From the IMG/VR virus record IMGVR_UViG_3300044677_000044, positions 33,019 to 97,018 of that record: DNA of 64,000 nucleotides; one strand, given 5' to 3'. Of the stretch, positions 8,830 to 27,819 are shown piece by piece. The stretch comes from a virus. A program made the translations under genes and the position numbers. The stretch's first letter is position 1; each line of letters opens with the position of its first letter. A model generated the notes under the pieces. The model searched no databases. It saw only the letters and a program-made list of their open reading frames with translations, and was not told where the DNA came from.

Positions 8830-9417
8830 TCAGGAGCCGGTGTAGGCGGGCGTGACCGGCACGAAGTCCGTGTGGTAGACGGTGATGTTCGCGTCGTCCG
8901 GGTACGCCGTGACGGTGATGCCGTAGCCGGACATAGTGTCCTGCTTGAACGTCACGTCGTCGCGGTCAGAGATCTCGCCCTGGGGGACGTAGAAGCCGCG
9001 GGCGGTGTCGCCATCGAAGACCACGAACCACCACGCCCGCCTGTCGGGGGTGGGGGCGGCCGTCTCGCCGAAGTTCGTCAGGCCGTCCTCGTCCGGCGCG
9101 AGGTCCGCCGCCGGGATGCGGTACATGATGCTCTGCACCTGCACCCGCGCGGTTTCCCACAGCGTCATCTTGAACGTACGGATGGACTTGGTGATCGTCG
9201 TACGGAACGGCGAGGTCAATCCCCACGGCGTGAACGCCTGGGAGTCCTCATCGAAGCCGTAGACCAGGCCGTCGTCGCTGGTCGCACCGAGGGGTGCGAA
9301 CGGCGGGAGGGGCTGCTCGAGCGGCGACGTGGGCCGCTCCGTTCCCAACGGGCCGACCCACCCCGCCCCGTTGCTTCCGATGACGGTCAGGTCCTGGGAC
9401 CTGTCGATCGTGACCAT
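8830..9417 (-). CDS. Major tail (tail tube) protein
   Basis: ATG 9417 with GGAGG RBS; LGATSDDGLV...TFKMTLWET...YGITVTAYPD is a typical actinophage tail tube; C-terminus ...PAYTGS. Confidence 0.92.
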   Translation of the reverse strand: MVTIDRSQDLTVIGSNGAGWVGPLGTERPTSPLEQPLPPFAPLGATSDDGLVYGFDEDSQAFTPWGLTSPFRTTITKSIRTFKMTLWETARVQVQSIMYRIPAADLAPDEDGLTNFGETAAPTPDRRAWWFVVFDGDTARGFYVPQGEISDRDDVTFKQDTMSGYGITVTAYPDDANITVYHTDFVPVTPAYTGS

Positions 9418-9498
9418 GCGCTGGCCTCCAGACATGCTGAGGCCCCGCACGGCGGGGCCAGGATGGGAAAGAGGGTCCGGCGCGGGCCCGCTTGGCGG

Positions 9499-9882
9499 TC
9501 AGGAGACCGGGTGGAAGAACACTTCGTAGGTGCCGCCGATCTTGCGCAGCGCCGGGTTTTCGTACGGCCGCCACATCGGGGCGCTGACGGTGGAGACCCG
9601 GCCGAACACCGCCTTGGCGGTCTTCACGCCCCGCAGCTTGATGACGAGGTCGTCACGGGCGGCGCGGGCCAGCGCGGACGCATCGGCGCGGGTCAGCGCG
9701 TAAGCGTCGACGTCGATCAGCGCCCGGTCCAGGCGGAACCCGTCGTCAGTGCCGCCGACGCGCTGCACCTGCAGGACCGGCAGGACATCGAGGAGATCCG
9801 CTGGAAGGTCCGTGCACACCCGCACCGTCCTGGTCCCCGTCAGGTAGGAGACCAGTTCGGCCTCCACATCGGGCCACTCCAT
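9499..9882 (-). CDS. Tail terminator protein
   Basis: WPDVEAELV...LPVLQVQRVGG...IDVDAYA pattern; position before tail tube. Confidence 0.85.
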   Translation of the reverse strand: MEWPDVEAELVSYLTGTRTVRVCTDLPADLLDVLPVLQVQRVGGTDDGFRLDRALIDVDAYALTRADASALARAARDDLVIKLRGVKTAKAVFGRVSTVSAPMWRPYENPALRKIGGTYEVFFHPVS

Positions 9883-10214
9883 CAGCCGCCCCCGGCCACT
9901 GCGGCGCGCAGCATGACGTGGTGGGCCGGGCCGCCCTGGCTGTTGCTGTACTCGACCCAGCGGGCGTACGGGGCGACGTTGGTGGCGTAGGCGACGGCCC
10001 GGTCCTGCCGTACGCCACCGTTCTTGGTCGATGTGACGAGGACCGATGCGGCGTACAGGCCGGCGTGCCGGTCGGTCAGCGGGTCACCGCGCGGGGCGAT
10101 CGCCTCGGCCGTGGCCTTGACGAGCCGGGCACGGCGCAGCATCTCGTCCTCTACCATCTGCGAGCGGAGCAGCTGACCGACTCCGGTCCTGCTCATCGTG
10201 AAGCGCGCCGCCAT
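9882..10214 (-). CDS. Tail completion / HK97 gp10-like neck protein
   Basis: MAARFTMSRTGVGQLLRS...YARWVEY...HHVMLRAA; ATG at 10214 with GAGG RBS (C-terminal part of track ORF 9882..10493). Confidence 0.75.
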   Translation of the reverse strand: MAARFTMSRTGVGQLLRSQMVEDEMLRRARLVKATAEAIAPRGDPLTDRHAGLYAASVLVTSTKNGGVRQDRAVAYATNVAPYARWVEYSNSQGGPAHHVMLRAAVAGGG

Positions 10215-10250
10215 GTGCAACCACCTCGTCTGCTGGATCAGGGGGAACTT

Positions 10251-10571
10251 GTGATCGACATCGAGACGGGCACCGGTAGCCGTGTGACCTTCGACGGGCG
10301 GTCGGTGACCATCGAGCGGCTGCGGGGCATCTCGAAGTCCGTGTTCGGTGAGCGGTCGACGGTCGTGCCGGTCGGTCAGATCGCCGCGGTGGAACTGGTG
10401 CAGCCGTCGTGGATGCGCGCCGGCCACATACGGTTCGCTGTGCCCGGGTCGCAGGCCGCCGCGGCCCGTACGGCGGCGAACCGGGATGAGCACGCGGTGC
10501 TGTTCAGCAAGAGCCAGGCCAAGGAGTTCGAGGTCCTGGCGGCCGCGGTGCGCGCGGTGATCAGCCGGTGA
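10251..10571 (+). CDS. DUF4429-like small protein, antisense to the structural operon
   Basis: GTG 10251: MIDIETGTGSRVTFDGRSVTIER...VVPVGQIAAVELVQPSWMRAGHIRFAVPG...DEHAVLF resembles DUF4429 (PH-like) proteins. Confidence 0.65.
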   Translation: MIDIETGTGSRVTFDGRSVTIERLRGISKSVFGERSTVVPVGQIAAVELVQPSWMRAGHIRFAVPGSQAAAARTAANRDEHAVLFSKSQAKEFEVLAAAVRAVISR

Positions 10572-10914
10572 CGTACTCCAGGCTGGCCTCGACCGGGCCG
10601 GTGCTTCCGGTGAACGGCGACTGGTAGTCGCCGCTGCGGCCGTACACGTTGTACAGGACCCCGTCGACGATGACCTGGTCGGTGGCCCGCAGGTCGGTGC
10701 CGGTGGGGGCGTACAGCTTCAGGCCGGAGGTGACGGTGTCCCGGGCGTCCACGACCTCGATAGGGCCTGCGGTCGCAGTGTTGTGGGGCTCCACGGCGCA
10801 GCCTGGGACCTGAATGTTCGTCGGGGCGCCGGGAACGTCGTTGCCGTAGTCGTCGCGGGCTGGCGCCCCCGGGCGGACGATGGTGATCGTCTTACCGTGT
10901 GGCAGGGCGCGCAC
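10561..10914 (-). CDS. Head-to-tail stopper
   Basis: TITIVRPG...DDYGNDV...LYAPTGTDLRATDQVIVDGVLYNVYG pattern. Confidence 0.88.
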   Translation of the reverse strand: MRALPHGKTITIVRPGAPARDDYGNDVPGAPTNIQVPGCAVEPHNTATAGPIEVVDARDTVTSGLKLYAPTGTDLRATDQVIVDGVLYNVYGRSGDYQSPFTGSTGPVEASLEYVTG

Positions 10915-11914
10915 CGGCCGCCACCTCCTCCACCGCCGTGCACCACTGCCCGAGTTCCGCGCCCGGGTCGAGTGTGTCGGCCCGGGTGGTGGCGAGTTTC
11001 GACGCCTGACCGTACGTGGCCGGGTCGTCGAGGTCTTCGATCGCGGCCTGCCACGACGGAAGGTCGGCCCGGTCGCAGAACACCCCAGCTTCGCCGAGGG
11101 ACTCGGCCAGGCCCGGTGTGGGGTGTGCGATCACGGGGATGCCGGAGCTCATGGCCTCCACGCCGACCCGGCCCCACGATTCGTACACCGACGGCATCAG
11201 CAGCAATCGGGTGCGGGCGTACACGTCCTCGCGCATGCGGCGCCCGTCGGTGTGCTCGATGACGGTGACGTTCGGGAGGTCCGGTGGCTCTTGCGGCCCG
11301 TGGCCGCCGATGACCGCGAGGAACCTGCGGTCCGGGTTGGCGCGGGCGAGCGCGGCGAAGACCCCGACGCCCTTGTCCCGGTTGCAGTTGATCAGGGTGA
11401 TGTGGTCGCCGCGGGTGGTGCGGTAGTCCGCGGCCCGCACCGGCGGCCGGACCACCAGCATCCGGCCCGGCCTGCGGGTCCGGCCGTGGAAGTGCTCCTC
11501 GGCTTCGCCACGCATCCACTGGGAGTTGACGACGGCGAGCGCCGTGGCACCGGTGACCAACGGCTTCCACGTCAGGTCGAACGTGTTGTGACAGACCACG
11601 ACCAGGGGCCGGCCGTAGCCGTGGGCGAGCGACGCGGTGACCTGCACCTCGTCCAGGTGACTGACCAGGACGTGCGCCCGGGCCGCGGCTGCGGGGAAGC
11701 GGCTCCCGGCGGCCGCCGGGATGACGTGCACACCGTCCAGGTCGTACGGCTCGCGGCGCCCCGGCGTCCACCGGGACAGCCACACCTGCACGGTGTGGCC
11801 GCGGCCGGCGAGCGCCCGGAGCATCTCGTGGAGCATCCACTCGGCGCCGGCGTTGTGGTCGGGCGGGTAGGCGTGGATCCGGGCCAGGACCCGCAGCACG
11901 GTGGTCATCGCCAC
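10892..11914 (-). CDS. Glycosyltransferase family 4 (GT-B), paralog B
   Basis: HAYPPDHNAGAEWMLHEM N-terminus; PSVYESWGRVGVEAMSSGIPVIAHPTPGLAE GT4 signature. Confidence 0.92.
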   Translation of the reverse strand: MAMTTVLRVLARIHAYPPDHNAGAEWMLHEMLRALAGRGHTVQVWLSRWTPGRREPYDLDGVHVIPAAAGSRFPAAAARAHVLVSHLDEVQVTASLAHGYGRPLVVVCHNTFDLTWKPLVTGATALAVVNSQWMRGEAEEHFHGRTRRPGRMLVVRPPVRAADYRTTRGDHITLINCNRDKGVGVFAALARANPDRRFLAVIGGHGPQEPPDLPNVTVIEHTDGRRMREDVYARTRLLLMPSVYESWGRVGVEAMSSGIPVIAHPTPGLAESLGEAGVFCDRADLPSWQAAIEDLDDPATYGQASKLATTRADTLDPGAELGQWCTAVEEVAAGARPATR

Positions 11915-12531
11915 CTCACCATCGACATGCCGCTAGTGGGCCGGTAGTCCTTCAGCGTGGCCTTGTCCGCGGCGGACATCGTCACGGCCGTGCCGACCCC
12001 GGAGCCGTCGGTGCGGTAGCTATACGGGCCGATCGTCTCGCCGGTGACACCGCCCGCGAGGGTGGGCGCGGTCAGGGTCCGCAGGACCATCGCGGCGACC
12101 ACCGCCACCACATCTTCGGGGACCGCGGCGTCCCCGTAGCTGTAGACGACCCGGTAGGTGCCTGGGTACGCCTCCGCGTCGTCCTCGTACCACTGCTCGG
12201 GGAGGTTGATGACGGGGGTGGCCACGGCGGTCCGGATGATGTCCAGGCCGTCCCACTCCCAGCCCACCACGGGCAGATCGGGTGCACCCCCGGCGCCGAT
12301 CGCCACCACCGAGGTGACGTCCCGGACCGGCTTCTGCGGCAGGCGGATCTCGCCCTGCTGCGCGCGCAGCACGACCGCCTCGTTGTCGGTGCGTGCGAAG
12401 CTCTGCTTGGTGTAGCCGCGTACGAGCGCGGACGCGTCGGCCAGCAGGAACCCTGCGCGGTCGGTTTCAGCGGGGGTCAGGGGCCGGCCGAGCCGGCCTT
12501 CCAGGTCGTCGGTGCTAGCGAGGGGATCCAC
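11905..12531 (-). CDS. Head-to-tail adaptor
   Basis: MDPLASTDDLEGRLGRPL...LLADASALVR...ETIGPYSY pattern; position after capsid. Confidence 0.88.
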   Translation of the reverse strand: MDPLASTDDLEGRLGRPLTPAETDRAGFLLADASALVRGYTKQSFARTDNEAVVLRAQQGEIRLPQKPVRDVTSVVAIGAGGAPDLPVVGWEWDGLDIIRTAVATPVINLPEQWYEDDAEAYPGTYRVVYSYGDAAVPEDVVAVVAAMVLRTLTAPTLAGGVTGETIGPYSYRTDGSGVGTAVTMSAADKATLKDYRPTSGMSMVRWR

Positions 12532-13528
12532 GGCGGCTCACCCCCTCCATGACGGTGGCCCACTGGTCAAGCTCCGCGCCCGGATCGAGCGCGGCCGCCC
12601 GGGCGGTCGCGGCCTTCGACGCCTTCTTGTACGCGGCGGCCCCGGACAGGTGCTTGATCGCGGCCTGCCAGGCCTCGATGTCGTCGCGGTCGCAGAACGT
12701 CCCCGCGTCGCCGCAGGACTCCAGCAGCCCCGGCGTGGGGTGGGCGAGCACGGGGATCCCGGAGCACATCGCCTCGACCGCGACCCGGCCGTACGACTCG
12801 TACACCGATGGCGCGAGGAGGAACCGGGTGCGGGCGTACACGTCCTTCGCCATGCGGTCCCCCGCGGTGTGGGGCACGATCTCCACGTTCGGAAGGTCCT
12901 CACGGACGATCTGGTGCCCGTAGCCGCCGACGACACCGAGGAACCGGCGTTGCGGCATCCGCTCGGCCAGCGCGTAGAAGACCCTGGCGCCTTTCTCCTC
13001 GGTCAGGTTGATCAGCGTGATGTGGTCGCCCGGGGTGGTCTGGTAGTCGGGCACGGCGACCGGCGGGTGCACCGTGATACCCCGCGGCATCGGCCTGTCC
13101 CCACGGTTGCGGCGCCACCACTGCTCAGCGTCGGCCGCCATCCACACGGTGTTGTAGACCGCGAGCGACGGGGTGCCCTTGGCCAGCCACGACTTGGACT
13201 TCTCGAAGGTGTTGTGGAGGAGGTGCACGACCGGGATGTGGTTCATCTCCCCCAGGATCGAGGCCCGCGGGGTGTTCTCCAGGTGCGTGACGATGACCTG
13301 CGCCCGGTGCTCCCCGCGCATCCACGGGCCTGGGTCGGCCTTCCCCCGGAACGGGTAGACGTGGACGCCGTCGATGTCGTACCGGTCCGTGGTGTCCCCG
13401 CGCTGGGACAGCAGGACATCGACGTTGTGCCCACCGGCGGCGAGGTGCCGCAGCAGGCTGTGGGCGGCCCACTCGGCGCCGGCGTTGTGGGCCGGCGGGT
13501 AGGCGTGCAGCATCGCCAGGACGCGCAA
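12515..13528 (-). CDS. Glycosyltransferase family 4 (GT-B), paralog A
   Basis: Likely TTG start at 13528 (GGAG RBS); HAYPPAHNAGAEW; PSVYESYGRVAVEAMCSGIPVLAHPTPGLLE GT4 signature. Confidence 0.92.
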   Translation of the reverse strand: MRVLAMLHAYPPAHNAGAEWAAHSLLRHLAAGGHNVDVLLSQRGDTTDRYDIDGVHVYPFRGKADPGPWMRGEHRAQVIVTHLENTPRASILGEMNHIPVVHLLHNTFEKSKSWLAKGTPSLAVYNTVWMAADAEQWWRRNRGDRPMPRGITVHPPVAVPDYQTTPGDHITLINLTEEKGARVFYALAERMPQRRFLGVVGGYGHQIVREDLPNVEIVPHTAGDRMAKDVYARTRFLLAPSVYESYGRVAVEAMCSGIPVLAHPTPGLLESCGDAGTFCDRDDIEAWQAAIKHLSGAAAYKKASKAATARAAALDPGAELDQWATVMEGVSRRGSPR

Positions 13529-13547
13529 CAGGGGCTCCGTTCTCCGG

Positions 13548-13582
13548 CCGTGGCGGCGGCCCACGGGTTGCAGGCCGCCGCC
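13548..13582 (-). terminator. Hairpin(s) after the major capsid gene (attenuator or processing site)
   Basis: 10-bp stem 13552-13561/13573-13582 with a competing 6-bp stem 13548-13553/13561-13566. Confidence 0.45.
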
Positions 13583-13589
13583 GGGCGGC

Positions 13590-14540
13590 TCAGGACGCGG
13601 CGGTGGTCGCCTGAACGACACCGAACGGCGAGCGGGTCGTCGCGTCGGTGTTGAGGCGGGTCGCCGGGTTGGCCGTGGCGAACGCCGCGCGCATCACGAC
13701 ACGCATCGCGACGGAGTCCTGCTGCATCAGGTTGAGGATGACCCGACCGTCGTCGTCGGAGATCACACCCTCCGTGAACAGCTTCCAGGAGATGTCCTGC
13801 CGGGTGCCGACGATCGCCTTGGACCAGTCGCCCATCAGCAGTTCGGCCTCGGACATGTCCCAGGCGCCGTTGCTGAGTTCGGCCATCGGGTAGCCGTACA
13901 GGTTGCCGCCCGGGGACCCGTTCATGTTCGGCTGGAAGATCGGGATGCCCTGCTCGGAGCGCATACCGGTGAGCTTCCAGTTCAGGCCCGGGCGGGCCAC
14001 GAACCCGTTCACGCCGAAGCCGTCCCGGGTGACGAGCTCGGCGACGGTGGAGACGTCCTGCCCGAAGTCGGTGCCGGCGCCCGAGATGACCGCGTTGCCG
14101 GCGCCGACCGCGGACTGGTAGACGGGCGTCGGCCAGGTGCTCGGCTTGTTCGTGCCGAACAGGGCCGCGCCGTCCAGGAGCGCGCCGATCGCCTCGGTGA
14201 GGCGGGGCCGCACCTGGTCCCAGATCGGGATCTGAGCGTCGTCCAGGTAGGACTCGGGGATGGGGACGATCGCCGCCATCTCCTCGACGATCAGGTCGAC
14301 GTTCTTCCAGTCCTGCGCGCTGGTCTGCTTCAGGCCGGTGTCGCCGCCGACGAAGTACGCGATCGGCATGACGTCCAGGACGGGCTGCCGCTGCGTCTTG
14401 GACGACATCGGCACCTTGCGGGCGAGCTGGAGGATCGCCGACTGCGACGGAAGCTCCTGGATGATCTCTGCGCTCACCGGCTCGGGCACCAGCGGGTCGT
14501 TGCTGGCGTCTCGGCTGATGATGCTGTTGTACGTGGCCAC
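13590..14540 (-). CDS. Major capsid protein (HK97 fold)
   Basis: DPLVPEPVSAEIIQELP...YFVGGDTGLKQTS...EEMAAIVPIPE...NLMQQDSVAMRVVMR; C-terminus ...QATTAAS. Confidence 0.96.
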   Translation of the reverse strand: MATYNSIISRDASNDPLVPEPVSAEIIQELPSQSAILQLARKVPMSSKTQRQPVLDVMPIAYFVGGDTGLKQTSAQDWKNVDLIVEEMAAIVPIPESYLDDAQIPIWDQVRPRLTEAIGALLDGAALFGTNKPSTWPTPVYQSAVGAGNAVISGAGTDFGQDVSTVAELVTRDGFGVNGFVARPGLNWKLTGMRSEQGIPIFQPNMNGSPGGNLYGYPMAELSNGAWDMSEAELLMGDWSKAIVGTRQDISWKLFTEGVISDDDGRVILNLMQQDSVAMRVVMRAAFATANPATRLNTDATTRSPFGVVQATTAAS

Positions 14541-14612: not shown

Positions 14613-15365
14613 TTAGGGCCTTCGGCCGGCCGCGTTGCGGATCCAGTCGTCAGCGGTGACAGGCGCCGCCGACGCGGGCGCCGCGCCGGGGGTGAGGCTC
14701 TCCACCGGCCGCTGGGCCGCCGGAGCAGCCGCAGCCGGGGCGACGGCCTTCAGGTGGGTGGCCAGGGCCTCCGCCCGGGCTCCGATCTCCTCGGCCGTGC
14801 CGCCTCCGAGGAGGTCGATCAGGTCGGGCGGGATGCTGTGCGTCGCCGCGGCCATGAGCCGCGAGTTCGCAGCCTTCGCGTCGGCGAGCTGCTGCTCGTA
14901 CGTCGTCGCCTTGTCGGTCGCCCGCTGGAGCTCGGTCTTTTGCTGCTCCTCGAACTCCTGGTACTTCTGAGCCGCGGTGCGCAGCTGGTCGAGCTCGTCC
15001 TTCGACTTGAAGCCGAGCGCGCCGATGTGCTGGGTCTCGTGCTTGCGGGCCAGCGCCTTCCACTTCGCGACCTCGCCTTCGAGGTCGACCGGGCCGGTGT
15101 CCTTCCCGGCGGGGTCGGTGCCACCAGCGGCGGCCGGAGTGGGCGGGGTCGGTACCGGGACTGCGGGAGCGACGGCCGCCGGGGCCTGAGGCGCCGCGGG
15201 GGCGCCCTGGGCCGACGGCTGCATGAACTGGCCCGCAGCGACGGCCGCACCGAGCATCTGCTGGGCCTGCGCGTCCGGAGACGCGGCAGGGTCCGCGGCG
15301 GGTGCCGCTGCAGGAGCTGCGGGAGTAGGAGCGGCCGGGGCCGCGCCGGGGGTGGGTGTGGACAT
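14613..15365 (-). CDS. Capsid scaffolding protein
   Basis: Ala/Pro-rich N-terminus, KWKALARKHE and EQQKTELQRA coiled coil; directly upstream of capsid. Confidence 0.88.
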   Translation of the reverse strand: MSTPTPGAAPAAPTPAAPAAAPAADPAASPDAQAQQMLGAAVAAGQFMQPSAQGAPAAPQAPAAVAPAVPVPTPPTPAAAGGTDPAGKDTGPVDLEGEVAKWKALARKHETQHIGALGFKSKDELDQLRTAAQKYQEFEEQQKTELQRATDKATTYEQQLADAKAANSRLMAAATHSIPPDLIDLLGGGTAEEIGARAEALATHLKAVAPAAAAPAAQRPVESLTPGAAPASAAPVTADDWIRNAAGRRP

Positions 15366-15796: not shown

Positions 15797-16591
15797 TCAC
15801 CTCCCTCCGGTGTCTCGGGGCGGCGCCACGTATCCGGTGCGGCCCTCGGCTTCCCACCAGCGGCGGAACGCGTTGACGGCGTTCCTTCCGCCGGTTCCTT
15901 TGGTCTCGCGGACCCAGTCCTCGTACAGCTTCGCGGCTAGGCCGACGAAGTCCTCGGAGAGGGTGAATGCCGGCCATGCCTGGCAGGCGCACAGGTCGTG
16001 GTAGCGGTTGCCGCCTTGCCGGGGGTCACCGGCGCTCTGCGCGGACTTGTAGACCGGGCCGCGGGACGCGAGCATCGCGCACCAGGCGCACGGGTCTTCA
16101 TCGGTGACCCGCGACCATCCAGTGGCCCGCTCATCCCGCTCAGTCGAGTCCTGCAGGACCTGCCGGCCGCCTTCGAGCGCCAGGTACGACGCGGACCCCG
16201 ACAGGCGAACCGCCGCGGAGTCCATCGCCTGCTGCGGGGTCTTGCCCGCCGCGATGGCCTTCTTGAACTCCACCGGGCCGGCGACGTCCAGGGCCGTCAG
16301 CAGCCGTTCGATGTCGAGGTCCTCCGCCGGGGAGGGGAGGAACGCGTCGTCGGGGATGTCGGCGGCCCGCCGGGCTTCCATGTACGCGCTGTCGGCGAGC
16401 TGCGCGGACTCCAGGCGGGCCTGCTGTACTGCGGGCACCATCAGGGCGCGCAGTGTGGGCCACGACGCGTCGACGTTCGCGGGGTTGAGGAGGTCGCGCC
16501 AGGCCCGCACGAGTTGCTGGATCAGCCGGGCCTGGATCAGGGCCTGCCGGCGCCGGTACGCCATCGCCAGGCGGGCGCTGATCGACGCCAC
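15797..16591 (-). CDS. MuF-like minor capsid / head morphogenesis protein
   Basis: GWSRVTDEDPCAWCAMLASRGPVY...YHDLCAC Cys/His motif; follows portal. Confidence 0.85.
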   Translation of the reverse strand: MASISARLAMAYRRRQALIQARLIQQLVRAWRDLLNPANVDASWPTLRALMVPAVQQARLESAQLADSAYMEARRAADIPDDAFLPSPAEDLDIERLLTALDVAGPVEFKKAIAAGKTPQQAMDSAAVRLSGSASYLALEGGRQVLQDSTERDERATGWSRVTDEDPCAWCAMLASRGPVYKSAQSAGDPRQGGNRYHDLCACQAWPAFTLSEDFVGLAAKLYEDWVRETKGTGGRNAVNAFRRWWEAEGRTGYVAPPRDTGGR

Positions 16592-16592
16592 G

Positions 16593-18008
16593 TCAGGCCG
16601 CGTCCGGGAGCGTCAGGTTCGGGCTGGGGGGCGGTGTGGCGTCCTTGGGCGGCGTCATCTGCTTCTCGATGATCCCGTCGAGGCGGTGCATCGCATCGCC
16701 CTGCTCAGCGGTCTTCTTCCACCGCACTACGTCGGTCTGCGTGATGCCGGGGATCTTCTCCCACAGTTCCTGCGGGGGCACACCGAGCATCGTGACGAGT
16801 TTGCCGAGGGCGTCGACGGTCTGCGCGAGCGACCGCGCGGAGGTGTCGCGCCACACGACCTGCGCGGAGGTGTCCTCCCACGCCTCCTTGTCTCCGGACG
16901 CGTGGCCGACCAGGCGCAGCAGTTGCTCGTGGGACTCGCCGCACAGCGACTCGCGTTCGTCGATTTTCCGGTCCAGGCCGTCGCGGGCGGCGGCCAGGGC
17001 CTCCGCGGAGAGGTTCACCAGCGCGCCGAGCAGGTGGTAGGGCGGGACCTGGCTCATGGTCGCGATGTGCCGGATGGTGTCCTCGCGGGACTTCAGGTAC
17101 CCGGTGAGGTCGGTCTGCCCGAACTCCCCGAACTTCGTGTCGGCGTCCTCGCCAACGAACAGGCCGTCGACCCGGGACCGGAAAGGCTCGATCGGGTTGC
17201 CCTTGCTGTCCTGCGGCGGTGCCATGCCGGTGACCCAGCGCTGCCGGAATGCGGCGTACTGCTGCGCCATCAGCAGGTTGAACGTGGTCATGTTCAGCTG
17301 GTCCTGGGTGGTGATCAGCGGCTCGACCTCGCCGAGCACGCCGTCGCCGTCCAGGTCCTGGGTGTTGACGTACCGCACGACCGGGCACACCCCGAGCCCG
17401 TGCTCCATCACCGCGTTCCGGCTTTCCATGGTGAGTTCGGACCCGTCCGGCTTCCCGGTCATCGAGTAGCGGGCCTGGTCGTCGTAGACGCGCACCACCC
17501 GGCGCTTGCCCGTCCGGGTGTTCTGCAGGCTGTCCTCGATCGCGAAGATCGGCCACTCATCATTGACTGGGTCCGCGTACACCGCGGTCATCCGCCGCGG
17601 CGAGAACGGGGTAATCACCGGCAGTGGCTTGCCCGGCAGGACCACCGCATAGGCCGCGCCATAGCTGAGGACCGCACGGTGGATGCCGTGCTGCCGGGCA
17701 TCCATCCGGTTGGCCTGCCACGCCTTCCACGGCGCCGCGTTGTCGTCCTGCTTCGCCTGCCGGTACCCGTCGACGTACATGTTCTGCGCGACGACCGTGA
17801 CAACCAGCGGCAGGATGTTGACCTTCGCCCGCTCGATCAGCCAGTGGTACTCAGCCTGCGCCCCCTTAGGTACGTACACCGAGGCGTGCTTCCCGCACAG
17901 GTAGTCAGCGATCCGCTGGAGCCGCGCCTGCTCATCCTTGCGGACCGCCAGCAGCCGCTTGCCCGTCGCCACCGCCTCATTGGGAGTCATCAGGGGCATG
18001 CCGGACAC
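16593..18008 (-). CDS. Portal protein (SPP1 gp6-like)
   Basis: 471 aa after TerL; QQYAAFRQRWVTG, NLSAEALAAA and ELWEKIPG motifs of actinophage portals (start may be ATG 17999). Confidence 0.93.
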   Translation of the reverse strand: MSGMPLMTPNEAVATGKRLLAVRKDEQARLQRIADYLCGKHASVYVPKGAQAEYHWLIERAKVNILPLVVTVVAQNMYVDGYRQAKQDDNAAPWKAWQANRMDARQHGIHRAVLSYGAAYAVVLPGKPLPVITPFSPRRMTAVYADPVNDEWPIFAIEDSLQNTRTGKRRVVRVYDDQARYSMTGKPDGSELTMESRNAVMEHGLGVCPVVRYVNTQDLDGDGVLGEVEPLITTQDQLNMTTFNLLMAQQYAAFRQRWVTGMAPPQDSKGNPIEPFRSRVDGLFVGEDADTKFGEFGQTDLTGYLKSREDTIRHIATMSQVPPYHLLGALVNLSAEALAAARDGLDRKIDERESLCGESHEQLLRLVGHASGDKEAWEDTSAQVVWRDTSARSLAQTVDALGKLVTMLGVPPQELWEKIPGITQTDVVRWKKTAEQGDAMHRLDGIIEKQMTPPKDATPPPSPNLTLPDAA

Positions 18009-19700: not shown

Positions 19701-20171
19701 TCAGCCTGTCGACTCCTGCTCCGCGGCCACGATCCGCAGGTTCTTGCGCCGCGCGGTCACCGACCGCGGTGTCTCTGCGGCAGGTTCAGCCCCGGTCCCT
19801 GGAAGGTTGACCTTCAGCTTCAACCGCATCCGATCCTCGGGGGTGGCCCCAAACTTCGCCGCCCGCAGCCGGACCTCGGACCCGAATTCCCATCTGCCCT
19901 TGGTCCAGAACACATGGTGCAGAAGTGCCGTATCGAGGAGGAAGTCCCAGTCGGTGTCCAGGAACGTGGCCGCCATCGGCGAGTGCCGCCACGTCTCCCA
20001 CCACCTGCGAGTCTGCGGGTGCCAGGTTTCATCGTCCGGGAGCACACCCTCCGGCAGATCAGGGCCGCGCACCTCATCGTCGACGTCGAGCGGGGTCATC
20101 TCCGCGTCCCGCGCTTTCGCATCTCGGGCCCGCGAGCGGGTGCCCTTGGGGGCCATGCCGTGGCCGGCCAT
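19701..20171 (-). CDS. terS: Terminase small subunit
   Basis: WHPQTRRWWETWRHSP...DWDFLLDTA...EVRLRAAKFGATPEDRMRL is a typical actinophage TerS; ATG 20171. Confidence 0.9.
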   Translation of the reverse strand: MAGHGMAPKGTRSRARDAKARDAEMTPLDVDDEVRGPDLPEGVLPDDETWHPQTRRWWETWRHSPMAATFLDTDWDFLLDTALLHHVFWTKGRWEFGSEVRLRAAKFGATPEDRMRLKLKVNLPGTGAEPAAETPRSVTARRKNLRIVAAEQESTG

Positions 20172-20184
20172 GAGCGCCACCCCC

Positions 20185-20787: not shown

Positions 20788-20844
20788 GTTGGAGAGCCTA
20801 ACAGGCTGTGTAACGGCAATCCAGCATCTGACCTGCTGTTTCTC

Positions 20845-21211
20845 GATCGAGATTTCCAAGGCCGATCGGGGGTCGGCCGGCGGCCTGGCGAAGGCGCCCG
20901 ACATCAGCGCAGGTCAGACCATGATCATCAGATCCCCAGAGTCGCGCGCACCGCGAGGTGCTAACGTGCCCGATCCTCAGGATTTTTTGATCTTGGGGTG
21001 GCCCCCCAGGGTGATCTTGGCCCGTCGTTTGATCTTGACGAGAGGTTCAGACCACCCATGTTCAATCTTGGACCGGCCGGCCTGGACTCCCCGGAAGTCG
21101 ATCATGCTGGCGTCCGATTGGATCTTGCCAAGGCCGATCACGACCGACTCGCAAGCTCGTTCGATCAGCCGATCAGTGCCACATCACTACGATGATCACA
21201 GCGTGATGATC
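20845..21211. repeat. GATC/ATCTTG-rich intergenic region; probable cos/packaging site
   Basis: 15 GATC in 367 bp, five ATCTTG copies (20990, 21014, 21032, 21065, 21122), central TGGGG-TGGCC-CCCCA inverted repeat at 20994-21008; located between HNH and the terminase genes. Confidence 0.65.
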
Positions 21212-21240
21212 AAGCGCACGTGATGCCCACCAGCCTCGCC

Positions 21241-22540: not shown

Positions 22541-22930
22541 TCAGGCCGCCTTGGGCTGGCTGGTGTGGACGGGCTGCCCGCTGTCGCTGGTGAGCGGCTC
22601 TTCGTCTACGAGGGTGTAGGTCTTGCCGCCGTCGGTGGACATGGCGCGGGGGTCGCGGACGTTTTGCCAGAACGGATTGCCGCCCATCTCCTGCGCCCGG
22701 TCGATCCACTCGGCGGGGTCGTCCGTGAGCGGAGTCAGCGGGCGGTAGCGGAGCAGGTGGTTCAGGTAGTCGGCGGCGATGGGAGCGGAGCCTCCGCTGT
22801 GTCCCATGTCCGCGAAGGCGGCGACGACCTTGCACAGGCCGTCCACGATCCAGGGGTCTTCGCCGCGCAGGGTGAGTTCACGGCGGGCGTGGTCAACGAG
22901 GGGGCTGTCGGTGGTGGTGGCGGTGGCCAT
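22541..22930 (-). CDS. Conserved hypothetical phage protein
   Basis: HARRELTL...FADMGHSGGSAP...PLTPLT motif seen in many phage proteins. Confidence 0.7.
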   Translation of the reverse strand: MATATTTDSPLVDHARRELTLRGEDPWIVDGLCKVVAAFADMGHSGGSAPIAADYLNHLLRYRPLTPLTDDPAEWIDRAQEMGGNPFWQNVRDPRAMSTDGGKTYTLVDEEPLTSDSGQPVHTSQPKAA

Positions 22931-22948
22931 GGGCGCGGGCCTTTCCGG

Positions 22949-23632
22949 TCAGGCGGTCTGGTGGGTGTGCTCGTTGATGAGGGCGCGGATCGCGTCGGGG
23001 TTGCCGGTGGCGTCGACGTAGCGCTGCATGCGCTGGCCTCCGGCGATGTGCTGGGGTGATCCGAGGCCGGATTCGAGGGGGTGCCACAGGTGGGTGATCG
23101 TGCCGGGGTGCTTGGCGGCGGGGCCGAGGAGGGCGTCAGCGGCGGTGCGGAACGCGGTGTCTTCGAAGCCCCAGCCGGTGAACGCCTCGTCCATGCCGCC
23201 CGCCGCCCACCAGGCGGATGGTTGGATGACGAGGACGCCGCCGGTGGCCCATTCGTGGGCCCAGTCGCTCGGGCAGTCGTCGGCGGGCTGCCCTGCAAGG
23301 TAGGCGGCGGTGCCGGCCTGTGACAGGCCGCGGTACCAGGTGTACGGCAGGTGCAGCACGCCGTCGGTGGCGTCCGCGATCGCGGCGTGGAGGGGCTCGG
23401 CCTGGGGCAGGGTGTCGGCGTCGCAGATGACGACGATGTCGGCGCCGGCGGCCTGGGCTTGCCGTACGCCTTCGTTGCGGCTGCCGGCCCGGCTGAACGG
23501 CTCGTGGGCGCTGTCGACATCGAGGTGCAGCGCGTCGGGCAGCAGCGCTGTCAGGTGGGTGCGGACGGTCTCGTGGTGGGCGTTGCGCTCGGGTGTGCCG
23601 GGCCGCCAGGGGATGACGGCGGCGACGGTCAC
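22949..23632 (-). CDS. GT-A glycosyltransferase (GT2/GT7 galactosyltransferase-like)
   Basis: GTG 23632; VIPWR, FSRAGSRNEG, DxD motif CDAD, GGMDEAFTGWGFED (Glyco_transf_7C-like), HLWH. Confidence 0.9.
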   Translation of the reverse strand: MTVAAVIPWRPGTPERNAHHETVRTHLTALLPDALHLDVDSAHEPFSRAGSRNEGVRQAQAAGADIVVICDADTLPQAEPLHAAIADATDGVLHLPYTWYRGLSQAGTAAYLAGQPADDCPSDWAHEWATGGVLVIQPSAWWAAGGMDEAFTGWGFEDTAFRTAADALLGPAAKHPGTITHLWHPLESGLGSPQHIAGGQRMQRYVDATGNPDAIRALINEHTHQTA

Positions 23633-24222
23633 AGGGCCCGCCACAGGCTCCAGGGCCGGTCGTGGTTGTCGAGGCGTTCCATCTTGAGCCGGCCAGCGAG
23701 GTCGTTCTGGCGTTGGCGGTCCCAGGTGGTGACGTCGAGCCAGGCGGCGCCTTCGGCGGGGTCGTCGGAGGTGGGCCAGTCCAGGGCGAGGGTGCCGCCC
23801 TTCTTGACGATGCCGCGCAGGGCGGTGACGAGGTGCTCGCTGGTGGCGTAGTCGTGGTGGATGAGCACGGCGAGGCACACGGCGGCGTCGACTTTGCGGC
23901 GGCCGAAGTGGTCGGTGAAGTTGTCGCCGGTGGACTGGAACGCGGTCAGGTCTGGGTCGTTGGCGGTGAGGGCGGTGAGCATGTGCTCGGAGGCGTCGGC
24001 GCCGGTCACGTCGTAGCCCAGGGCGCGCAGGGCGATGGAGATGCGGCCGTCGCCGCATCCGAAGTCGAGGACCCGGGCGCCGGCGGGGATGTCGGCGGCG
24101 AGGAGGTCGGCTTGTGCGCGGCCGGATGCCCAGTAGGCGTCTTCGGAGATGCCGCGGGTGGGGTGGATGGAGCCGGCGGCTTCGGGCCGGTCCCAGGCGG
24201 CGATGACGTCGGCGGCGATCAT
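23629..24222 (-). CDS. Class I SAM-dependent methyltransferase
   Basis: ATG 24222; RVLDFGCGDGRI, VTGADASEHML, AVLIH motifs. Confidence 0.9.
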   Translation of the reverse strand: MIAADVIAAWDRPEAAGSIHPTRGISEDAYWASGRAQADLLAADIPAGARVLDFGCGDGRISIALRALGYDVTGADASEHMLTALTANDPDLTAFQSTGDNFTDHFGRRKVDAAVCLAVLIHHDYATSEHLVTALRGIVKKGGTLALDWPTSDDPAEGAAWLDVTTWDRQRQNDLAGRLKMERLDNHDRPWSLWRAL

Positions 24223-24809
24223 GCTCGGCTCTCCACTTCGTGCTCGGCGAGCCAGCGCCGTACTGCCTGGTTCTGGTACGCGTCGTTGAGGGCGTTGTGG
24301 AGCCCGGTTTCCTGCTGGGGGAGGTCGGCGTCGGTGAGGCCGAGGCGCTCGATCTCTTGGCGCAGGTCGTGGGTCCACATCGGGACGCCGTCGGGCAGGC
24401 GCATCATCGTTCCCCAGAGTTGGCACAGGGCGACGTGGTCGTAGGCGCCGTAGTCCGCCCACAGTTGGGGCTCGGGGGTGGCTTGGATGAAGTCCCGGAC
24501 CTCGTTGGCGATGACCCAGTGGGGCTTCACTCGGCTGTCGGCCTTGTCGGGGCCGACCATGGATAGTCCCGGCCGCGGGTAGTGGTTCGGGTGGTTGGCC
24601 ACGTAGGTGTCGAGCGTCGTCTTGCCCCTCATGGGCAGGGACGGCAGGACGTTGCGGACGAGCCAGTCGTTCGCCTTGATCCGTTCCCAGTCGGCGTCGC
24701 TGTTGACGGCGTAGTAGGAGCGGCCGTCGTCGGCGGCCATGCCGATCGAGATGATGTCGATCGTGCTGCCGTCCTCCAGGAACTCCAGGTCGTAGTCGAT
24801 GCCCGTCAC
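24219..24809 (-). CDS. DEDD 3'-5' exoribonuclease (Rv2179c/DUF5051-like)
   Basis: IDYDLEF, LWADYGAYDHVALCQLWG, HNALNDA motifs. Confidence 0.85.
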   Translation of the reverse strand: MTGIDYDLEFLEDGSTIDIISIGMAADDGRSYYAVNSDADWERIKANDWLVRNVLPSLPMRGKTTLDTYVANHPNHYPRPGLSMVGPDKADSRVKPHWVIANEVRDFIQATPEPQLWADYGAYDHVALCQLWGTMMRLPDGVPMWTHDLRQEIERLGLTDADLPQQETGLHNALNDAYQNQAVRRWLAEHEVESRA

Positions 24810-26059
24810 ATCTTCCTCCCGACTCGGATGGTGGTGACGCCGGGTTGGTCGGGCATGTAGCCGTGCGGGTCGATGACGACCGATCCGGGGGCGACCGCGA
24901 GGGTGCGGTGGTGTTCGTGGCGGGTGGCGATGACGTAGACGCGGGGCACGTGGGGAAGGTCGAACTCGCCGTCGACGTGGATGTCCTTGTGGTCGACCTC
25001 AAGGCCTCGCTCGCGGAGCTGGTGGGCGAGGAGGAGTGCGGGGCTGCCACCGGTGAGGTCGGAGCCGGGTTTGTACGCCTTGCCGAGGATGGTGATGCCG
25101 AGGCCGGTCTGCTGGGCCCACTGCTCGGTGAGGTCGGCGAGCCATCCGGACTGGGCTTCGCGGGCGCGGGCCATGTAGCCGAGGACGTCGGTGGACAGGT
25201 CGAGGCGCTGTGCGAGCCAGGACATGGCGATGAGGTCTCGGGGGTGGCAGTGGCCGCCGTCGCCCATGCCGCCGCGCATGTATTTCGGGGAGATGACGCG
25301 GTCGGTGGCTGCGGCGAGGGCGTCGGTGACGGCGTCGCAGTCGGCTCCGGTCTTGTGGCAGATCTCCATGAGCGCGTTGGCGATGACGATCTTTGTGGAG
25401 ATGACGACGTTGTACGCGACTTTCGCGAGCTCCGCGGACTCGATGCCCATGACCTGTGCGGGGCGGTCGTGGAGGGTGCGGTGGATGTCCATCACGGGCC
25501 GGGTGTGGGTGGGGTGGTCGGCGCCGAGGAGGACGAACTCGGGGTTGAGGTAGTCGGCGACGGTGGTTCCCATCGCGATGAACGCGGGGGTGTAGACCAG
25601 CGTCGTGAACTGGTTCAGCAGGGGCCGGATGAGGCGGTTCATCGTGCCGGGCAGGCACGTGGAGACCACGGCGACCGTGATGGGCTTGGCCTGCTGGTAG
25701 GCGGCCCGGCACACGTCACGGACGGCTTGGACGAGGAACTGGTACTCGAAGTCCCGCGGTTCGGCCGGCATGGGCTGCTCGCCGCCGTACTCGGGGCTGT
25801 GCGGGGTCTGCACGGCGACGAACACCACGCCGTCGGTTGCCGCGACCGCCCCGGCTGGGGTGGAGGCGAGTTCGAGGTTGGAGCCGGCGAGGAGCGCTTC
25901 GATGCCGTCTTCCTGCGGGGGTGGTGCCTGGCCGCAGAGGATCTCGTTGGGGCGGGTTGAGGGGTCGTAGCCGACGATGTGGTGCCCGCCGTGCTTCTCC
26001 TGGACCAGGGCGCACACGAGGCCGAGTTTGCCGAGGCCGACCCATCCGATGGTGCTCAC
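24806..26059 (-). CDS. UDP-glucose/GDP-mannose dehydrogenase family protein
   Basis: GTG 26059; Rossmann GWVGLGKLG, AVQTP, AELAKVAYN (catalytic Lys), GGMGDGGHCHPRD (catalytic Cys), ILGKAYKPGSD. Confidence 0.93.
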   Translation of the reverse strand: MSTIGWVGLGKLGLVCALVQEKHGGHHIVGYDPSTRPNEILCGQAPPPQEDGIEALLAGSNLELASTPAGAVAATDGVVFVAVQTPHSPEYGGEQPMPAEPRDFEYQFLVQAVRDVCRAAYQQAKPITVAVVSTCLPGTMNRLIRPLLNQFTTLVYTPAFIAMGTTVADYLNPEFVLLGADHPTHTRPVMDIHRTLHDRPAQVMGIESAELAKVAYNVVISTKIVIANALMEICHKTGADCDAVTDALAAATDRVISPKYMRGGMGDGGHCHPRDLIAMSWLAQRLDLSTDVLGYMARAREAQSGWLADLTEQWAQQTGLGITILGKAYKPGSDLTGGSPALLLAHQLRERGLEVDHKDIHVDGEFDLPHVPRVYVIATRHEHHRTLAVAPGSVVIDPHGYMPDQPGVTTIRVGRKM

Positions 26060-26850
26060 GATGCCTCCCGCTTCCTGAGGACGGCGGCGCAGTACCGCTT
26101 CTCGGGGGTGAGGTACGCGAAGCGTTCGATGGTGAACAGGTCGCCGAAGCGCTGCTCGATGCGTGCCTGGTCGTACCAGTCGGCGTATTCGCCGACCTGG
26201 TCGAAGGCCCGGACGAACCGTTCGAGGACCACGGGGTCGGCGGTGACGTCGTCGGGCGGTTCGGTGCCGGTGGCCTGCCGCCATCCGTGGTCGCTGTAGA
26301 CCATGATCCGGGCGATGCCGTTGGGGCGGAGCAGGGTGTGGGCGCGTTCCATGATCTGCCGGGCCCAGGGGATGTGGTGGAGGACTCCGTTGCAGTGGAA
26401 CACGTCGTAGGAGGCGGGGTCGGCTTCGATGTAGGGCGGTTCGCCGAGCGCCCGGTAGATCGTGAGGGGGCGGTCGAGGCGGAGGCGGGGCGGCATCTGG
26501 TCGGCGTAGAGGCTGAGGACGCGGACGGCCAGGTGCAGGTTGTCGGGGCTGATGTCGGCGAGGTCGACCCGGTTCCCTGCGAGGGCGAGTTCGAGGGCTT
26601 CGACGCCGGTGCCGCATCCGAAGTCGAGGATGTCCCTGTCCGCGGGGTCGTCGAGGCCCATGAGGTCGCGCCACAGGTTGTTGTGGTTGCGCCAGCCCGT
26701 GTACCGGGTGGTCCGCATCTGTTCGACCAGCGCCCGCAGTTCGTCGTTGGGCAGTTCGAGGAGGTCCGCGGAGGGGATGTAGCCGACGTCGTCGACGGGG
26801 GGACGGGACCAGGCGGCGGTCTGCCGGTCGAGGAATCCGGGGTCGGTCAC
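26056..26850 (-). CDS. Class I SAM-dependent methyltransferase
   Basis: GTG 26850; ILDFGCGTG, LADISPDNL, CNGVLHHIP motifs. Confidence 0.9.
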   Translation of the reverse strand: MTDPGFLDRQTAAWSRPPVDDVGYIPSADLLELPNDELRALVEQMRTTRYTGWRNHNNLWRDLMGLDDPADRDILDFGCGTGVEALELALAGNRVDLADISPDNLHLAVRVLSLYADQMPPRLRLDRPLTIYRALGEPPYIEADPASYDVFHCNGVLHHIPWARQIMERAHTLLRPNGIARIMVYSDHGWRQATGTEPPDDVTADPVVLERFVRAFDQVGEYADWYDQARIEQRFGDLFTIERFAYLTPEKRYCAAVLRKREAS

Positions 26851-27503
26851 GGCAGCTCCGCGTAGGTCAGCAGCAGGCGCAGGGCGGTGGTGTCGTTGGC
26901 GCGGGCCTGTTGCATGTCGGGGTGGTGGTACTCCTGCGTGCGGTACCCGGCGAGGGAGTCGGCGCGGGTCTGGTCGTCGTGGCCGCCTGTGAGGTCGGCC
27001 CGGTCGTGGAGGATCTCGATGTCGACGCGTTCGTGCCGGCCGACGGCCTGGCCGAGGTCCTGGATCCAGGAGTCGCAGTGCGGCGACAGTGACACGTGGC
27101 CGAGCGCCGTGGTCCATGCGGCGGGCCAGATCGGGAAGGTGTTGCATCCGGCGACATCGTTGCTGTGGGGCCACAGCACACCGCGGGGCCGCTGGTGAAC
27201 AGCGGTGTCCCAGCCGGGGGTGAGGAGCCGGGCGTCGTCGTTCCACAGCATCAGCCACTCGCCCTCAGCCATTTCGCCGAGGCGGTTGACGTACTTGTGG
27301 AGGCGCGAGTAGCCGTACCGCTCGGGGGCAGTCCACACGGTGGCCTGCCACGGCAGGTCTGTGGTGATCGTGGCCTGGTCGTCGGGGTCCGCGGCCACGA
27401 GGACCTGGATAGTGCCGGGCCGGTCCGCATGGTCCAGGAGGCTCGCAATGGACTCGGTGAGGGCCTTCGGCCGGCCGCGGGACGGCAGGAGAACAGAGAT
27501 CAC
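26847..27503 (-). CDS. GT-A glycosyltransferase (GT2-like)
   Basis: ISVLLPSRGRP N-terminus, WLMLWNDD (DxD-like), HCDSWI motif. Confidence 0.85.
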   Translation of the reverse strand: MISVLLPSRGRPKALTESIASLLDHADRPGTIQVLVAADPDDQATITTDLPWQATVWTAPERYGYSRLHKYVNRLGEMAEGEWLMLWNDDARLLTPGWDTAVHQRPRGVLWPHSNDVAGCNTFPIWPAAWTTALGHVSLSPHCDSWIQDLGQAVGRHERVDIEILHDRADLTGGHDDQTRADSLAGYRTQEYHHPDMQQARANDTTALRLLLTYAELP

Positions 27504-27573
27504 GCCTCGGCTCCGTACAGGTCGTGGTGGGTGAACGATCCGCTGTTCCGGCGGACGCCGCGGGGTGGCTCGG

Positions 27574-27819
27574 TCAGCCGTTGGCGCCGCCGATGAGGCC
27601 GCCCACCAGCGCGGTGCCCGTGGCGGTCGGGGGCGGCGTGGTGGGGGGAGTTGTCGGGGGTGTGGTGGGTGGCTTGCTCGTGGGCGGGGGCGTCGTCGGC
27701 CGCACGGTCGGCGTGGTGGTCGACGGGGCCGGGCCGGGCTTGTCGTGGCCGCAGGCGGCGAGGGCGAGCAGTGCGGTGCCGACAGCAGCGGCTGCGGCGA
27801 GGCGACGGGCGAGGTGCAC
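27574..27819 (-). CDS. Small Pro/Thr-rich (mucin-like) lipoprotein
   Basis: GTG 27819 with AAGGA RBS; signal peptide with lipobox LAAC; then PSTTTPTVRPTTPPPTSKPPTTPPTTPPTTPPPTAT. Confidence 0.75.
   Translation of the reverse strand: MHLARRLAAAAAVGTALLALAACGHDKPGPAPSTTTPTVRPTTPPPTSKPPTTPPTTPPTTPPPTATGTALVGGLIGGANG

Follow-up and report, generated by a model that had tools for sequence, protein, structure and literature searches.

The window analyzed here, a stretch of 64,000 nucleotides, comprises bases 33019-97018 of the 98,334-bp single-contig virus record IMGVR_UViG_3300044677_000044 and carries, within and upstream of its packaging and structural genes, a set of sugar-related genes that, as far as can be judged from sequence, may serve the phage to glycosylate its own virion proteins. 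The record was assembled from a soil metagenome, belongs to the linear class of IMG/VR and has a CheckV completeness of 91%; the G+C content is ∼70%, and genes were called by third-position GC. The closest protein relatives were found in Streptomyces genomes, in proviruses and in plasmids of 88-92 kb from Streptomyces sp. NBC_01005 and NBC_01369; a temperate or plasmid-like lifestyle is probable for the element. When isolate phages were searched with the region by megablast, only weak terminase matches were returned. An original prediction, made from the letters of the window, had proposed that four glycosyltransferases, a nucleotide-sugar dehydrogenase and two methyltransferases on the minus strand form one elaborate system for virion glycosylation. 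All of these genes could be confirmed at or near the places where they had been predicted, and an exonuclease gene (24219-24809) was found in addition. The gene set is composed of two separable modules with different distributions, not of one unit: a pair of GT4 genes within the head-neck block, and a six-gene cassette upstream of the terminase genes. Coordinates below are those of the window and, unless marked otherwise, of the minus strand.

The first module lies in a minus-strand block with the order TerS, TerL, portal, VG15-family protein, scaffold, capsid, GT4b, head-tail adaptor (Ad1), GT4a, head closure, neck, tail terminator, tail tube, chaperones and tape measure. GT4b (12515-13564), a retaining GT-B glycosyltransferase, is encoded directly after the capsid gene; the adaptor Ad1 (11905-12531; PHROG 137, 442 and 2377, 6e-24 to 8e-19) follows between the two GT4 genes, and GT4a (10892-11914) is encoded between the adaptor and head-closure genes. 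Both enzymes matched the same Pfam GT4 families (in GT4a, Glyco_trans_1_4 at 2e-13, Glycos_transf_1 at 8e-10 and Glyco_transf_4 at 1e-7), with the models PF13692, PF00534 and PF13439 scoring above their cut-offs, as well as PHROG 26352 (3e-128 for GT4a and 2e-108 for GT4b). GT4b could equally well start at 13528; in the longer version, residues 1-8 fold at pLDDT <50. The two enzymes are paralogs with ∼50% protein identity and, over three blocks, a DNA identity of 73-76%, and the GT4 genes overlap their downstream neighbors by 17, 10 and 23 nt. The EX7E motif is intact in both (residue 245 in GT4a and 256 in GT4b) and is kept in all three GT4 types.

A predicted model of GT4b (pLDDT 91.7) showed a GT-B fold with MshA as its best PDB match (TM 0.74). 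Other structural neighbors were a methylmannose-polysaccharide mannosyltransferase, PglA, PimA and BshA, and SdgB appeared lower, at rank 42 of the fold search. Soluble retaining GT-B enzymes of the GT4 type that transfer sugars to protein Ser in the cytoplasm are known from Gram-positive bacteria, namely GtfA and SdgA/SdgB, and GtfA/GtfB constitute a paralogous pair. The window enzymes share only ∼14% sequence identity with them, and GtfA, SdgA and SdgB act on long Ser-rich repeats, not on one C-terminal Ser. Furthermore, GtfB is non-catalytic, whereas both window paralogs keep the catalytic motif, and the idea that one of them serves as a non-catalytic chaperone like GtfB was rejected on this basis.

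The fold matches also bear on one of the readings weighed against virion glycosylation under ALTERNATIVES, which were host-surface conversion, DNA glycosylation and a defense system. Phage glycosyltransferases and methyltransferases are classic tools of DNA modification, and a fusion of HIT and nucleoside-deoxyribosyltransferase-like domains is encoded elsewhere in this genome; the enzymes might thus decorate modified phage bases and help evade restriction. However, the GT4 fold resembles enzymes acting on small molecules, lipids and proteins (MshA, PimA, BshA and SdgB) and not T4-type DNA enzymes, and the two methyltransferases are class I enzymes of the small-molecule type. A thymidylate-synthase-like hydroxymethylase (PF00303) was absent from the 98-kb record, whereas the same search was positive in 10 of 14 control genomes, so that a hydroxymethylated base for the enzymes to act on is not evident. 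DNA glycosylation would also leave unexplained both the capsid-neck position of the GT4 genes and the terminal Ser residues described below, and we regard it as extremely improbable. An anti-phage defense system was rejected as well: PADLOC gave no match for any of the glycosyltransferases and only a generic similarity of the methyltransferases to mad2. In addition, PF20706, a model of GT4 enzymes in conflict systems, covers only ∼60 residues of the nucleotide-sugar-binding core and not the full length.

The GT4 module is widespread. Among 8000 scored candidates, 1391 proteins matched GT4a at E≤1e-10, and Streptomyces genomes (L002-L004) retain the gene order capsid-GT4b-adaptor-GT4a-stopper. 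We collected 80 IMG/VR loci by means of the tail-tube protein and counted only loci reaching the capsid gene for GT4 placement. A GT4 gene was located directly after the capsid gene in all of these bar one, L058. Two layouts could be distinguished among the 80 loci, a two-GT4 form and a one-GT4 form, the latter with a second capsid lineage that is 27% identical to the first; an Actinomadura prophage has a lineage-1 capsid with a single GT4. In L058 (4466-8246), an SU10-type capsid gene (PF17236) is followed by a gene for a 677-aa GT2/Methyltransf_24/GT2 fusion and then by a GT-A gene resembling GTA227, the last gene of the cassette described below, an arrangement that seems to have arisen independently at this position. 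A more distant relative, L119 (tail tube 29% identical), has a methyltransferase and a GT2 gene after the portal gene and a GT4 gene after the capsid gene. The GT4 arrangement is nothing exceptional in Streptomyces, being present in many Streptomyces genomes, proviruses and plasmids.

The proteins encoded next to the GT4 genes share a C-terminal feature. The major capsid protein (13590-14540; HK97 family, PF05065, 3e-25) ends in ...QATTAAS and the major tail (tube) protein (8830-9450; PF25681, 1e-16) in ...PAYTGS, and the C-terminal Ser of each is the proposed acceptor of the glycan. In a model of the capsid protein the last strand spans residues 306-311 and residues 313-316 have pLDDT <50; the C-terminal tail is thus predicted to be unstructured and the acceptor to be accessible. 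Of the closest 120 members of the capsid family, 103 end in Ser and 13 in GSA. For the 80 loci, a terminal Ser was observed in all 79 orthologs of the tail tube, in 9 of 9 lineage-1 capsids and in 54 of 60 lineage-2 capsids (the remainder ending in T or SA), and the SU10-type capsid of L058 ends in DDGTGS; other proteins of the same loci end in Ser in 14% of cases. The residues preceding the terminal Ser vary (TTAAS, TTHQS, TPSGS and DDGTGS in capsids; AYTGS, VAPAS and PTPSS in tail tubes) while the Ser itself stays, which suggests that it is the terminal residue that is under selection. The tail terminator (9499-9882; PF23841, 4e-5) ends in ...HPVS, and 71 of its 76 orthologs end in Ser. Terminators of Che8, Corndog, TurkishDelight (gp25), the Actinomadura prophage and five control phages lack this ending. 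The terminator Ser may represent a third glycosylation target, which is speculative, or just a family trait.

The same signature accompanies glycosyltransferases in other phages. The capsid and tail-tube proteins of the mycobacteriophage Che8 end in KTGS and SDGS, those of Corndog in LVGS and KGDS, and the capsid and tail proteins of TurkishDelight in GSTS and CVAS. In total, at least six capsid lineages that are unrelated or only distantly related show a terminal Ser, as do three lineages of tail tubes. The five control phages, isolates whose tail tubes are homologous (28-35% identity) and whose head-tail block encodes no glycosyltransferase, had no Ser ending in any of 10 capsid and tube proteins. 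In a sixth control, a metagenomic relative without a glycosyltransferase from TerS to the tail fibers, the tail tube ends in ...PIA. In the wider tail-tube family, 40 of 145 near-full-length distant representatives (28%) end in Ser.

These data also allow us to consider whether the GT4 genes are conserved morons without a virion role, making for example a storage or protective sugar compound, with the terminal Ser as a coincidental family trait. It is true that the best structural matches, MshA, BshA and sucrose-phosphate synthase, act on small molecules and that the common ancestry of orthologs inflates the Ser counts. However, the terminal Ser recurs in independent tail-tube lineages and in independent capsids (the two HK97-type lineages that are 27% identical, SU10, TurkishDelight, Che8 and Corndog), it is missing in the controls without glycosyltransferases, and loci with an exchanged capsid module still have the GT4 gene in its place. 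Hence, a moron function appears very improbable.

The second module consists of six genes, each overlapping the next by 4 nt, that run in the same direction as the terminase block and lie upstream of it. The first gene encodes GT218 (26847-27503), a GT2-like GT-A protein. It had no Pfam match above cut-off (PF00535, 12 bits, below it) and matched PHROG 14945, a glycosyltransferase family, at 2e-6; its family profile retrieved the GT2 structures PglI and TarS from the PDB at 3e-4. Invariant residues of the family are S3, P7, R9, D39, D41 and D42 (forming D-x-D-D) and N88-D89-D90 (NDD). The following gene encodes MT264 (26056-26850), a class I SAM methyltransferase (Methyltransf_12, 5e-14; Methyltransf_23, 4e-13) with orthologs in G009 and L008, and then come the dehydrogenase (NSDH, 24806-26059) and an RNase AS-like DEDD exonuclease (24219-24809; NF033638, 1e-41; PHROG 2259, 2e-50; PF16473, 3e-9). 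The exonuclease is 49% identical to Che8 gp101, has no evident link to sugar chemistry and is missing from the cassettes of G009, L005 and L006, and it is probably a passenger. MT197 (23629-24222), a second class I SAM methyltransferase (Methyltransf_23, 3e-12; Methyltransf_25, 5e-11), has orthologs in L005, L006 and G009. The last gene encodes GTA227 (22949-23632), a GT-A glycosyltransferase matching PHROG 1721, 'galactosyl transferase', at 9e-30. No glycosyltransferase beyond GT4a, GT4b, GT218 and GTA227 was detected, and no epimerase was found. Directly upstream of GT218, a small ORF (27574-27855) encodes a lipoprotein signal (..LALAAC) followed by a nearly pure Pro/Thr tract, with no Pfam match. 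This lipoprotein was considered as a dedicated acceptor of the cassette and rejected, there being no counterpart beside the cassette in L005, L006 or G009.

The dehydrogenase belongs to the nucleotide-sugar 6-dehydrogenase family (PF00984, 8e-20; PF03721, 1e-12; TIGR03026, 9e-50). PF03721 (48 bits) and PF00984 (71 bits) scored above their cut-offs, whereas PF03720 (25 bits) was below its cut-off of 30, and the TIGR03026 score of 169.6 bits was below the NCBIfam subfamily cut-off of 189.8. Searches against the PDB matched UDP-glucose dehydrogenase (UGDH, 4e-30) and GDP-mannose dehydrogenase (GMD, 2e-28) and did not separate enzymes for UDP-Glc from those for GDP-Man. Like UGDH and AlgD, the protein has a three-domain architecture, and the alignment to UGDH and GMD showed that the catalytic Cys (in GGHCHPRD), Lys and Asn are kept. 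It differs from UGDH and AlgD in the NPEFxxE motif, one Glu of which helps hydrolyze the thioester intermediate in this enzyme family: where these enzymes read NPEFLREG, the window protein reads TPAFIAMG, and both Glu residues are lost. The same loss was observed in all 13 phage homologs examined (42-77% identical), which read [NGS]P[AFY]FIAM, and a second, canonical paralog in L009 keeps NPEFLTE. The Glu-less subfamily may therefore make a product other than an ordinary uronic acid.

It had been suggested that the glycan contains a uronic acid that is probably O-methylated. On the basis of current results this is not secure, given the loss of both Glu residues, the ambiguous PDB matches and methyltransferases that offer no clue to their substrate: PDB sequence searches with MT197 and MT264 were uninformative in this respect. 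As to the genomic surroundings of the dehydrogenase, a GT218-like gene is adjacent or close to it in 10 other viral contigs. The Glu-less form is nearly always found next to or near a GT218-like GT2 gene (L005-L018, ∼10001-11290), in phages of 33-72% GC that include contigs of 203 and 369 kb. In three contigs (L011, 5687-16501; L013, 9360-13428; L009, 8943-13711), long co-directional glycan clusters surround the dehydrogenase/GT2 pair and include a DegT aminotransferase, B12-binding radical SAM enzymes, methyltransferases, a sialyltransferase-like GT29, an NAD synthase and a second, canonical dehydrogenase.

To our knowledge, experimental proof of virion glycosylation in phages exists only for a few mycobacteriophages, where the modification is discussed mainly as a shield against antibodies. 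The glycan of Che8 is reportedly situated at the C terminus, and some Streptomyces phages are said to encode putative glycosyltransferases. According to published accounts, capsid and tail-tube proteins of Che8, Corndog and Myrna are glycosylated by phage glycosyltransferases (PMC12363180; PMC11256854), Che8 gp110 and Corndog gp38 are described as essential for capsid glycosylation (PMC12363180), Corndog has a methyltransferase and glycosyltransferases in its structural block (PMC4351075), and possible glycosylation is mentioned for Rhodococcus phages (PMC13313380). In the literature searched, no mention of virion glycosylation could be found for Streptomyces phages, including TurkishDelight.

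The comparison with Che8 made in the original prediction proved apt. GTA227 is a full-length homolog of Che8 gp109 (BLASTP, 6e-9) and Corndog gp37 (1e-12), as confirmed by tblastn. In Che8, the glycosyltransferase genes 108-110 are followed by an HNH gene (112), the genome end, TerS and TerL, and the window cassette is likewise situated upstream of an HNH gene and terminase; moreover, capsid and tail tube end in Ser in both phages, and an RNase AS-like exonuclease (gp101) is encoded near the Che8 genes. On the other hand, the window adds two head-neck GT4s, a nucleotide-sugar dehydrogenase and separate class I methyltransferases, and its phage has a Streptomyces-type host and a 98-kb genome, whereas Che8 infects mycobacteria. 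Che8 gp108 (L105, 4172-5347), annotated only as a glycosyltransferase, consists of an N-terminal GT2-like part and a C-terminal TylF-like methyltransferase part, the latter being 54% identical to the Corndog gp35 methyltransferase; no homolog of gp108 was found in the genome studied here. A specific relationship between GT218 and the GT2-like part of gp108 was rejected, the match (40% probability, E = 3e-4) being generic only. Similarly, hhalign comparisons of MT197 and MT264 with Corndog gp35 and Che8 gp108 gave probabilities of 4% and 1%, which reflect only the generic class I fold.

Corndog (cluster O) resembles the window in the homology of gp37 to GTA227 and in the terminal Ser of capsid and tail tube. 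It differs in that its glycan genes (gp35-38) lie between portal and protease, that it has neither a GT4 nor a dehydrogenase, and that its methyltransferase shows no specific relationship to MT197 or MT264. The GT4 part finds its counterpart in TurkishDelight, the sole isolate phage in our collection with a relative of GT4a: gp20 (38% identity), which carries the annotation glycosyltransferase, is encoded between the capsid and major tail genes. Unlike the window enzymes, gp20 is one protein of 678 aa with two tandem GT4-like halves, and TurkishDelight has unrelated structural genes and no dehydrogenase cassette. Thus, membership in the Che8/Corndog kind is partial: one enzyme, the position and the acceptor signature are common, while the enzyme reported to be essential in those phages is missing and GT4s are present instead. 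The system appears to be of a known kind, although assembled here from other enzymes, and actinomycete prophages carry such systems very commonly; the particles are probably glycosylated.

The distribution of the cassette differs strongly from that of the GT4 module. Among 32 long relatives, all of which have the GT4 module, the dehydrogenase was found in one (G009), GTA227 in two and remote GT218-like genes in 12. Accordingly, the gene set does not constitute one system of constant composition: nearly all members of the phage group have the GT4 module, whereas the dehydrogenase cassette is a rare add-on. Variants of the cassette occur in L005, L006 and G009, all without the exonuclease and two also without MT264. 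Loci reaching the head genes for these three (L023, L022 and L046) have a lineage-2 capsid gene with an adjacent GT4; since every member of the phage group has a GT4, this co-occurrence weighs little. In the window, the cassette and TerS are separated by a gene for the anti-defense protein Tad3, small ORFs, a weak HNH, a 453-nt non-coding stretch and a 200-aa gene of unknown function. The view that the cassette shares an operon with terminase, capsid and tail genes thus stands with regard to direction, but the genes are not contiguous with terminase.

Such a pattern raises the question of whether the functions are split, with the GT4 pair glycosylating the virion and the cassette acting independently on something else in the cytoplasm, for example a small molecule, a precursor of host glycoconjugates, or a further phage protein (the tail fibers or the Pro/Thr-rich lipoprotein). 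The presence of the cassette in only one of the 32 relatives, its separation from the structural genes by the anti-defense gene, the HNH and the non-coding region, and the lipoprotein gene directly upstream would agree with this, as would the finding that relatives of the dehydrogenase-GT2 pair reside in larger clusters (with DegT, B12-radical SAM and GT29-like genes) of unrelated phages with 33-53% GC. However, GTA227 is homologous to Che8 gp109 and Corndog gp37, a GTA227-like gene and a GT2-methyltransferase fusion directly follow the capsid gene in L058, the cassette occupies a Che8-like position upstream of HNH and terminase, and in L005, L006 and G009 the cassette has no such lipoprotein gene next to it. 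We therefore consider split functions unlikely, although less so than the other alternatives to a joint role in virion glycosylation.

It is also conceivable that the enzymes alter a host wall polymer and thereby block superinfection, as Gtr clusters and TarP do in other prophages. In favor of such host-surface conversion, the element is probably temperate or plasmid-like, and a weak match of the GT218 profile to TarS and TarP, two glycosyltransferases of teichoic acid, was observed; this match, however, amounts to generic GT2 similarity. None of the eight proteins contains a transmembrane segment (no 19-residue window above 1.6 on the Kyte-Doolittle scale), and the cassette includes no flippase or membrane component. 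Furthermore, the GT4 genes sit inside the head-neck block, where they overlap with structural genes, and not near a lysogeny module, and the Ser signature would be left unexplained. Host-surface conversion is thus quite improbable. Together with DNA glycosylation it had been offered as an alternative in the original prediction, and indirect tests (no transmembrane segments and no hydroxymethylase, respectively) leave both weak.

Taken together, glycosylation by the phage of its own virion proteins is the best reading overall and, judged from the genes, a reasonably probable one, in line with what had been predicted; the homology of GTA227, the Che8-like position of the cassette and the Ser endings support it. 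For its parts, our confidence differs. We consider it likely that the capsid-adjacent GT4s act in virion glycosylation, whereas the chances that the cassette elaborates the same glycan appear about even. Under this reading, glycosylation would take place in the host cytoplasm during particle assembly, from genes that are presumably expressed late. GT4a and GT4b, encoded beside their presumed substrates, would initiate the glycan, using an NDP-sugar as donor to glycosylate the C-terminal Ser of the capsid (...TTAAS) and tail tube (...YTGS) proteins, with the tail terminator (...HPVS) as a possible third acceptor. The cassette would then extend and decorate this glycan: the dehydrogenase may supply a modified sugar donor, its GT2-like partner GT218 may transfer the sugar, and MT264 and MT197 may methylate sugars.

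Several observations weigh against this reading. First, the sequence was found in DNA runs of soil metagenomes only, and no RNA run contained it. Second, no homolog of gp110/gp38 could be detected in the whole genome (no BLASTP or tblastn match below E = 0.08), and the GT218 family gave a probability of 0.1% in an hhalign comparison with gp110/gp38; the chemistry known from Che8 thus cannot be transferred directly to this phage. Third, the cassette is not present in 31 of the 32 long relatives and is thus dispensable, relatives of its dehydrogenase-GT2 pair belong to the larger glycan clusters of unrelated phages mentioned above, and its link to the GT4 module is circumstantial. Fourth, the dehydrogenase has lost both Glu residues of its motif. 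Finally, orthologous tail tubes are 63-79% identical to that of the window, and shared ancestry accounts for part of the Ser conservation, so that the raw Ser counts overstate independence; in addition, one distant relative ends in Ser, with no glycosyltransferase seen in its 5-kb fragment.

A broader proposal can be put forward only tentatively, and we think it somewhat unlikely in its full form: C-terminal Ser glycosylation would be a near-universal, GT4-initiated trait of a large group of actinomycete temperate siphophages and phage-plasmids, and a mobile cassette would cap the glycan with a non-canonical sugar, different from a simple uronic acid and made by the Glu-less, phage-specific dehydrogenase subfamily. 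The signature, here with GT4 as a different, presumed initiating family, is present in well over a hundred phage, prophage and plasmid sequences of soil actinomycetes. If true, particle glycosylation would be an ordinary and ancient feature of actinobacteriophages, and a near-universal trait of this kind would point to a function in soil rather than to immune evasion, for example in particle stability, adsorption or evasion of bacterial recognition. With such a short Ser tag, glycosylated virion proteins could be recognized simply from their C termini, the compact GT4 enzymes could be used to glycosylate proteins site-specifically at the C terminus, and the Glu-less dehydrogenase subfamily, which accompanies a GT2-like enzyme in phages of many hosts, would deserve biochemical study by itself.

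TerS (19701-20180) and TerL (18019-19668) stand at the start of the packaging and structural block (PF25673, 5e-35; TerL_ATPase, weak), and TerL is 85% identical to TerL of L002 and L003. They are followed by the portal (16593-18008), the VG15-family protein (15797-16591) and the scaffold (14613-15257). Beyond the capsid and GT4 genes come the head closure protein Hc1, or stopper (10561-10914; PHROG 501, 1e-18), the neck protein (9882-10220) and, preceded by the chaperone genes, the tape measure (3463-7932). The portal of an Actinomadura rubrisoli prophage (L116, 2989-5724) is a protein of 911 aa in which a LAGLIDADG_3 match splits the SPP1_portal match, suggesting an intein.

The 453-nt non-coding stretch (20788-21240), flanked by the HNH-like ORF and the gene that precedes TerS, has a lower GC content. 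Five CAAGATY repeats occur in it within 139 nt (20989-21127), compared with 14 matches in the window and 4.4 expected window-wide, and words containing GATC are numerous. The stretch is a candidate terminase-binding (cos/pac), packaging or regulatory region. Simple scans revealed no promoter, and terminator-like sites were no commoner than in shuffled sequence.

Both flanks of the cassette carry further genes on the same strand. Directly downstream, a 129-aa protein (22541-22930) matches PF25185, Tad3, an inhibitor of type I Thoeris, at 4e-31, and upstream a 211-aa protein (29365-30000) has a PASTA domain (1e-9). The fusion protein mentioned above in connection with DNA glycosylation is encoded at 60614-61576 (plus strand) and combines, in one protein, a HIT domain (9e-11) and a nucleoside 2-deoxyribosyltransferase-like domain (3e-13). 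ARAGORN predicted two tRNA genes on the plus strand: a tRNA-Lys(CUU) at 4209-4290, antisense within the tape-measure gene and probably spurious, and a tRNA-Leu(UAA) at 51745-51828, in the early region.

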